Below are positions 9,978 to 10,711 of a DNA stretch of 10,711 nt, in pieces. A program made the translations under genes and the position numbers. The stretch comes from Escherichia coli (GTDB lineage Bacteria > Pseudomonadota > Gammaproteobacteria > Enterobacterales > Enterobacteriaceae). The notes under the pieces are model-generated. The model ran no database searches and had not been told where the DNA came from. It saw only the letters and a program-made list of their open reading frames with translations. The number at the start of each line of letters is the position of its first letter. Within the stretch, counting starts at the first letter, position 1. The stretch is taken from the NCBI RefSeq assembly GCF_003334315.1, contig NZ_QOWR01000088.1; one strand, written 5' to 3'.

Positions 9978-10507
9978 TCAGCGGCTCATCAACACTTCAG
10001 CAATATGCATCACTTTGACTTTCTGCCCTTCCCGTTGTAATCGCCCACTGATGTTTAGCAGGCAACTCACGTCAGCACCAATTAAATACTCAGGGCGGAC
10101 TTCCATCAGGTGCGCAACCTTTTCTTTCACCATCTCGCCGGATATTTCGGCCATTTTGACCGAGAACGTGCCGCCAAATCCGCAGCAGGTATCCTGTTCA
10201 GCAAAGGTCAACAGCTCCAGTCCACGCACATTTTTCAGCAGCGTAAGTGGCTCGTCCTTCACTCCCAGCTTACGGGCCAGGCTACAAGATGGGTGATACA
10301 CCGCTCTCCCTTGCAAACTGGCACCTACATCGACTACCCCTAATTTATTAACAATAAAAGAGGTGAGATCCTGCATACGCGCGGCAACCTTTGCGGCACG
10401 TGATGCCCATTCAGGTTCATCCGCCAGATACGTCGGGTAACTTTTTACGGCATAGGTGCAAGAGCCAGCCGGTGAAATAATGGGATCGTCGTTATCCTCC
10501 AGTGCGG
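9978..10507 (-). pseudogene. ykgE: ykgE (LutA-like CCG-domain protein) truncated at its 5' end by IS1 insertion; C-terminal ~175 codons remain
   Basis: Minus-strand frame reads continuously from the IS1 junction as ...ALEDNDDPIISPAGSCTYAVKSYPTYLADEPEWASRAAKVAARMQDLTSF...CCGFGGTFSVKMAEISGEMV...AEVLMSR, matching the C-terminal part of remembered E. coli YkgE (~239 aa). The frame enters IS1 at 10508 with no in-frame start codon before a stop at 10596-10598. The first in-frame Met is the internal one at 10376. Confidence 0.85.
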
Positions 10508-10711
10508 GGTGATGCTGCCAACTTACTGATTTAGTGTATGATGGTGTTTTTGAGGTGCTCCAGTGGCTTCTGTTTCTATCAGCTGTCCCTCCTGTTCAGC
10601 TACTGACGGGGTGGTGCGTAACGGCAAAAGCACCGCCGGACATCAGCGCTATCTCTGCTCTCACTGCCGTAAAACATGGCAACTGCAGTTCACTTACACC
10701 GCTTCTCAACC
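10508..10711 (+). mobile_element. IS1 insertion sequence, 5' portion (left terminal inverted repeat at 10508-10530; element continues past window end)
   Basis: 10508 onward reads GGTGATGCTGCCAACTTACTGATTTAGTGTATGATGGTGTTTTTGAGGTGCTCCAGTGGCTTCTG..., the canonical IS1 left end. Same orientation as the IS1 copy at 1..453. Confidence 0.95.
10564..10711 (+). CDS. insA: IS1 InsA (transposition inhibitor / N-terminal part of InsAB' transposase), 3' partial at window edge
   Basis: From GTG at 10564 the frame reads (M)[48 protein letters not shown], the zinc-finger-containing N-terminus of remembered IS1 InsA. Truncated by the window end. Confidence 0.85.

Follow-up and report, generated by a model that had tools for sequence, protein, structure and literature searches.

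Near its end, a stretch of Escherichia coli DNA (contig NZ_QOWR01000088.1 of assembly GCF_003334315.1) carries a ykgE gene that runs headless into an IS1 element, naturally raising the questions of how the gene came to be cut and whether the ykgEFG operon can still supply its enzyme. The window, by which we mean the whole analysed stretch of 10,711 nucleotides, covers the bet–ykg region in the orientation reverse to that of K-12. It opens with the 3' 453 bp of a second IS1 copy (positions 1..453, plus strand, matching IS1 bases 316-768 and ending in the right inverted repeat), beside which lies a 5' fragment of yahV (454..503, minus strand), and continues with betT on the minus strand, betI, betB, betA and ykgH on the plus strand, and ykgG, ykgF and the ykgE remnant on the minus strand. 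The last 204 bp (10508..10711, plus strand) belong to the IS1A-type element that abuts ykgE and comprise its left inverted repeat, a promoter-like site for insA and the 5' portion of that gene, after which the element leaves the window. The proteins of the six intact genes compared were identical to those of a K-12 derivative, the sole amino-acid difference being Q537L in BetA (betA 5058..6728).

What is left of ykgE, the gene for the LutA/LldE-type subunit, occupies positions 9978..10507 on the minus strand and amounts to 530 nt: two nucleotides of codon 64, codons 65-239 (175 codons, A65 to R239) and the stop codon. Alignment to full-length YkgE (239 aa) fixed the truncation point in codon 64 and showed that the native protein starts before the residues present here, 190 nt (63 codons plus 1 nt) being missing from the window. 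An earlier note, made from the window sequence, had placed the loss at about 64 N-terminal codons and the entry of the open frame into the IS1 left end at 10507/10508, and both statements held. The remnant has no mismatch to K-12 over its 530 nt, and its translation equals YkgE residues 65-239. At the joint (10507..10508, corresponding to L002 14530/14531 in the intact reference locus L002 of strain PK8277) the window reads ...CCAGTGCGG followed by GGTGATGCTGCCAACTTACTG..., position 10508 being the first of the IS1 left inverted repeat, whereas L002 reads ...CCAGTGCGG followed by CGATCAG..., and the breakpoint is therefore unambiguous. Upstream of the remnant the ykgE frame continues without a stop through 27 codons of IS1; ATG, GTG and TTG are all absent until the ATG at 10376 is reached, and PGAP labels the remnant a pseudogene ('incomplete; missing N-terminus'). 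Downstream, ykgF (8540..9967, minus strand; LutB/LldF-type Fe-S subunit, 475 aa) and ykgG (7852..8547, minus strand; LutC-type subunit, 231 aa, 'LutC/YkgG family protein' in PGAP) are, as the same note had stated, intact and tightly linked: both are 100% identical to K-12, 10 nt separate the ykgE stop from the ykgF start, and ykgF and ykgG overlap by 8 nt (8540..8547).

Since the identical 60-nt junction was found in 28 complete-genome records, the fusion of ykgE to IS1 is neither a chance event nor an assembly artefact. Carrier counts were taken from 60-nt junction queries, 400-nt queries being unsuited since nearby IS1 pieces got joined. The 28 records, among 20,395 searched, correspond to 25 strains after removal of re-sequenced duplicates, and their sources include chickens and other poultry, ducks, pigs, frogs, sediment and humans. 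One carrier, JX21CE33, with the same double-IS1 arrangement as the window, has been assigned to ST206 and phylogroup A (PMC11997318). The 3' part of ykgE itself is present in 5,189 of 5,426 genomes; it also matches 21 plasmid places, and a plasmid-borne ykgEFG together with dld and lctP has been described for pFec10 (PMC7984374).

We then followed the element beyond the window. Its membership of IS1 is evident from the terminal inverted repeat (GGTGATGCTGCCAACTTACTGAT...), from the 100% identity of 10508..10711 to bases 1-204 of the 768-bp copy in strain 13C1065T (L001), and from its PGAP name ('IS1-like element IS1A family transposase, programmed frameshift'). In 13C1065T and in strain AHM9C68I (L009), where the element is exactly 768 bp long with an annotated programmed frameshift, its right end adjoins CTTTCATACTATTC..., 18 nt downstream of the fdeC/eaeH stop; in the intact locus this flank starts at L002 20166. 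The 9-mers beside the ykgE-side IS1 are CCAGTGCGG and CTTTCATAC, which means that the target-site duplication expected of a simple insertion is absent. Duplications of 8-9 bp do flank other IS1 copies of these genomes (GCAATGCCA in yahV, TGTAAATCT in ykgO and CAATATCC in the ykgG of strain PI12), and the missing duplication is therefore specific to the ykgE-side copy. In the intact locus the two flanks lie 5,635 bp apart (L002 14531..20165 missing from carriers); given this distance and the absent duplication, the ykgE 5' end, the promoter region and the rcl genes have been deleted, not displaced. The lost sequence comprises the ykgE 5' end, the ykgE–rclR intergenic region with a promoter-like TTGTCA-16-TATGTT about 100 nt upstream of ykgE, rclR, rclA, rclB, rclC, an aldo/keto reductase remnant and a ykgA-like helix-turn-helix gene. 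The rclR-rclABC locus, the immediate neighbour of ykgE in intact E. coli, is thus wholly absent from the window lineage through the same deletion. The native promoter is indeed missing, as the earlier note had said, but through a 5,635-bp deletion and not through an IS1 insertion that separated it from ykgEFG.

The right junction, on the fdeC side, was found by its own 60-nt query in 28 exact records, 25 of which also carry the ykgE junction; STEC388 matches this query at 98.3%, and its boundary between IS1 and the fdeC flank is also exact. Both junctions are contiguous, 768 bp apart, in 23 of the 25 records (767 bp in ET5). In strain 2018-11-3CC (= TBU0218_11-3CC, deposited twice) they lie 63 kb apart on opposite strands (NZ_AP021895.1, 3482600 on the minus and 3545346 on the plus strand), pointing to an inversion that later took place between IS1 copies. 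A simple IS1 insertion into ykgE, with the 5' part and the promoter intact just past the element, is uncontradicted as long as only the window is considered, which ends 204 nt into IS1; it is nevertheless next to inconceivable, since all 23 contiguous records lead from IS1 into the fdeC 3' flank and not into ykgE, no duplication is present, and the deleted arrangement is found in AHM9C68I (L009 10001..20711), whose only difference from the window is one base in the left IS1 (position 129). For all sequenced carriers we reject it outright, the far side of IS1 in L001 and L009 being the fdeC flank.

The other IS1 copies of these strains have different histories. The left-hand copy of the window is a simple insertion in yahV (L002 3387..3461), its full version at L009 9686..10453 having the duplication GCAATGCCA, which corresponds to L002 3412..3420; it has the same orientation as the ykgE-side IS1 and differs from the L001 copy of that element by 8 mismatches. 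A 10,054-bp segment, bet–ykgH–ykgGFE', is therefore bracketed by direct IS1 copies in a composite-transposon-like manner and would be prone to recombinational loss; this arrangement occurs in only 7 of the 28 junction-carrying records. A third IS1 in AHM9C68I (L009 27488..28255) interrupts ykgO, which encodes an L36 paralogue, and is flanked by the duplication TGTAAATCT. Every one of the 28 carrier records has at least 40 places matching IS1, except cM2a with 37; the median across genomes is 10, and IS1 thus seems to have expanded in the carrier lineage. The neighbouring fdeC appears as two overlapping CDSs, apparently frameshifted, in 13C1065T (L001 12994..17261) and L6-21, and is intact (4,257 nt) in AHM9C68I.

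Comparison with relatives revealed a nested series of endpoints on both sides of the element. With the fdeC-side junction retained, the left partner of IS1 lies inside rclA in PSS-12 (L002 16837), just downstream of betA in TOE3 (L002 9825) and beside yahL in RCAD0514, while in STEC388 the fdeC-side boundary is joined to phoE by a rearrangement. Conversely, with the ykgE junction kept, right-side deletions extend into fdeC in L6-21 (L002 20348), to upstream of ykgR in ST12468 (L002 25117) and into ecpR in PI12 (L002 27406). TOE3 and RCAD0514 are close to the window lineage (0-3 SNPs in 6 kb), and PSS-12 and STEC388 stand further off, at 15-16 SNPs over the same length. The IS1 copies of PSS-12 and STEC388 sit at the identical nucleotide (right junctions of L006 and L008) and show 24 and 6 mismatches, respectively, to the L001 copy. 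Because these two strains share the fdeC-side junction in distant backgrounds with differing IS1 elements, part of the nested series may consist of independent hot-spot insertions and not descend from one anchor. ETEC1730, in which the whole locus is intact, has a similarly oriented IS1 (within L007 6254..7039) displaced by 1 nt and flanked by the duplication ACTTTCATA; by analogy it shows what the pre-deletion state may have looked like. In other lineages, too, many IS1 copies are found no more than a few hundred bp from the 3' end of fdeC, and the spacer downstream of fdeC resembles an IS1 hot spot.

We regard it as probable that an adjacent deletion anchored at IS1 produced the ykgE'–IS1 junction as one of its edges and left a remnant operon that is most probably inactive. 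IS1 lies at the joint of sequences that are separated in intact genomes (L002 14530 and 20166), it is kept there without a target-site duplication, and across relatives one IS end is constant while the other varies, with deletions departing from either end of the element; all these are features of IS-mediated adjacent deletion, and we saw no mechanistic difference from it. Adjacent deletion is classically described for IS1, and a review covers it for IS elements at large (PMC11708052). We infer the following order of events: IS1 would first have entered the AT-rich spacer, 18 nt past the stop of fdeC/eaeH, and intramolecular transposition from its left end would then have taken out the 5,635 bp, halting in ykgE codon 64. 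Such a deletion would leave ykgF and ykgG intact behind a ykgE remnant deprived of its promoter, its start codon and most of the first CCG (Fe-S cluster) domain. The ancestor proposed here would have IS1 at exactly L002 20166, the duplication CTTTCATAC and intact left neighbours, and its junction is expected to read CTTTCATAC followed by GGTGATGC, the IS1 left end after the duplicated 9-mer; 60-nt junction queries did not find it in the collection.

RecA-mediated homologous recombination could in principle have given the same end product: had ykgE carried one IS1 in codon 64 and the DNA downstream of fdeC a second in direct orientation, a crossover between them would have excised the 5.6 kb and left one hybrid IS1 without matching flanks. 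A single IS1 lacking a duplication is exactly the structure predicted by this route and is identical to the product of an adjacent deletion; missing duplications have been attributed to either process, and recombination between IS copies is named as a frequent source of them (PMC11708052). The abundance of IS1 in carrier genomes speaks for recombination as well, as do the two direct IS1 copies that the window itself contains, 10 kb apart. However, ykgE 5' sequence across an IS1 was found in none of the 28 ykgE-junction records, no two-copy intermediate was found, and every left endpoint that shares the one right junction would require its own IS1 insertion in the same orientation. We therefore consider recombination possible but unlikely, and adjacent deletion from an IS1 anchored downstream of fdeC remains the reading that we prefer.

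Which part of the enzyme is lost can be told from the domain structure of YkgE. Full-length YkgE has two Pfam CCG domains (PF02754; residues 3-84 and 133-216), resembling in this respect LutA/HdrB-like subunits, and its nearest solved relative by sequence is heterodisulfide reductase subunit B (5odc_B), aligned across both domains. Each CCG domain of that subunit carries an Fe-S cluster. The remnant, which begins at residue 65, no longer contains two complete CCG domains: cysteines C9, C31, C41 and C42, four of the five of the first domain, are gone together with the CCG motif at 41-43, as the earlier note had anticipated, while C80 is retained, along with the final 20 residues of the first CCG domain and the second domain in full. 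The assignment of YkgE to its family was based on the Pfam CCG domains and the PGAP names, since no NCBIfam family scored above its cut-off for YkgE; for YkgG, no NCBIfam model matched at E <= 1e-5. YkgF scored 778.7 bits against TIGR00273, the LutB/LldF model (cut-off 444.8), and the remnant ykgE adjoins lutB- and lutC-type genes, the gene neighbours of the LutA/YkgE type. The order ykgE-ykgF-ykgG and the tight coupling of the genes are thus those of LutABC/LldEFG systems; unlike a working member, the LutA-type gene here has neither start, promoter nor most of CCG domain 1 and is a pseudogene. Bacillus subtilis LutABC and Shewanella LldEFG are three-subunit respiratory L-lactate dehydrogenases (as cited in PMC9701030), and in E. 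coli, according to data from strain MP1, YkgEFG behaves as a respiratory L-lactate dehydrogenase with nitrate (PMC9701030).

Whether the truncated operon might still be expressed was considered from the signals around it. The left end of IS1 presents an outward TTGGCA 8 nt from its tip, beside the promoterless operon, resembling the IS1 ends from which fusion promoters can arise (Prentki et al. 1986, cited in PMC9330008). Unlike in those cases, the flank here offers no usable -10 hexamer at 16-18 nt: in the best candidate of a relaxed scan, TTGGCA and GATAAC are separated by 19 nt, and the -10 hexamer does not end in T. A consensus scan detected no minus-strand promoter-like site in or at the IS1 end, and a plus-strand site, CTGCCA-16-TATGAT, was present at 10515..10542 within IS1. 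The internal ATG at 10376 is preceded by a weak AAGG 11 nt upstream. Rescue by transcription out of IS1 with initiation at this Met, which the earlier note had left open, accordingly finds no support in the sequence. On the other side of the element, two strong hairpins (16-bp and 15-bp stems; z = -10.2) are located at L002 20060..20185, between the convergent fdeC and ykgA-like genes, and no terminator downstream of fdeC was called under the T-run rule of the terminator scan. With both hairpins removed by the deletion, fdeC lacks its presumed terminator and is directed into IS1 and ykgE'FG; because of this loss and this orientation, read-through from fdeC into the remnant operon is conceivable.

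Combining these elements, one could suppose that the remnant operon is still expressed and partly functional, with fdeC read-through or a fusion promoter driving a 132-aa, single-CCG YkgE that starts at Met 10376 and acts with YkgF and YkgG. Besides the missing hairpins and the capacity of IS1 ends to create promoters, the complete lack of mutations in the ykgE remnant, ykgF and ykgG would fit this supposition. Yet mutation-free genes can simply reflect a recent event, the 19-nt spacer, the incomplete -10 hexamer and the poor Shine-Dalgarno sequence speak against efficient expression, and the four cysteines of one cluster site are lost. IS1 is, moreover, polar in both orientations. In the carrier PI12 a further IS1 (L012 2675..3442) with the 8-bp duplication CAATATCC sits inside ykgG, consistent with a dispensable operon and with continued decay of a dead one. 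Residual function is thus very unlikely in our estimation, and judging from the absent start codon, the lack of a convincing outward promoter and the single complete CCG domain, the YkgEFG L-lactate dehydrogenase is most probably inactive in carriers, as the earlier note had proposed for this strain.

A literature search for the ykgE/IS1 event returned no paper describing it and one unrelated Shigella paper. The feature is an ordinary IS-generated pseudogene, already annotated as such in public records, and has little importance beyond strain-level annotation. One may go further and propose that the fdeC spacer is a nucleotide-precise IS1 hot spot, from which deletions in both directions repeatedly take away the rcl operon and ykgEFG within a phylogroup A clade that includes ST206 and is associated with livestock and humans, and that these deletions could reflect selection for loss or could put ykgFG under fdeC read-through control; we hold this extended proposal to be improbable. 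The locus nevertheless provides a natural example of nested IS1-anchored deletions, and it illustrates that an IS junction at the edge of a window cannot be read as a simple insertion without the other end of the element. A mild phenotype is expected of YkgEFG loss, because the complex did not affect fitness in the gut and the principal enzyme is LldD (PMC9701030). For the phenotype, losing the rcl operon through the deletion arguably weighs more heavily, since RclA guards against HOCl with copper and reduces HOSCN (PMC7527725, PMC9335216). Carriers should therefore be scored as lacking both YkgEFG and the RclR/RclABC defence against HOCl and HOSCN, which could affect their behaviour in the inflamed gut or under chlorine disinfection.
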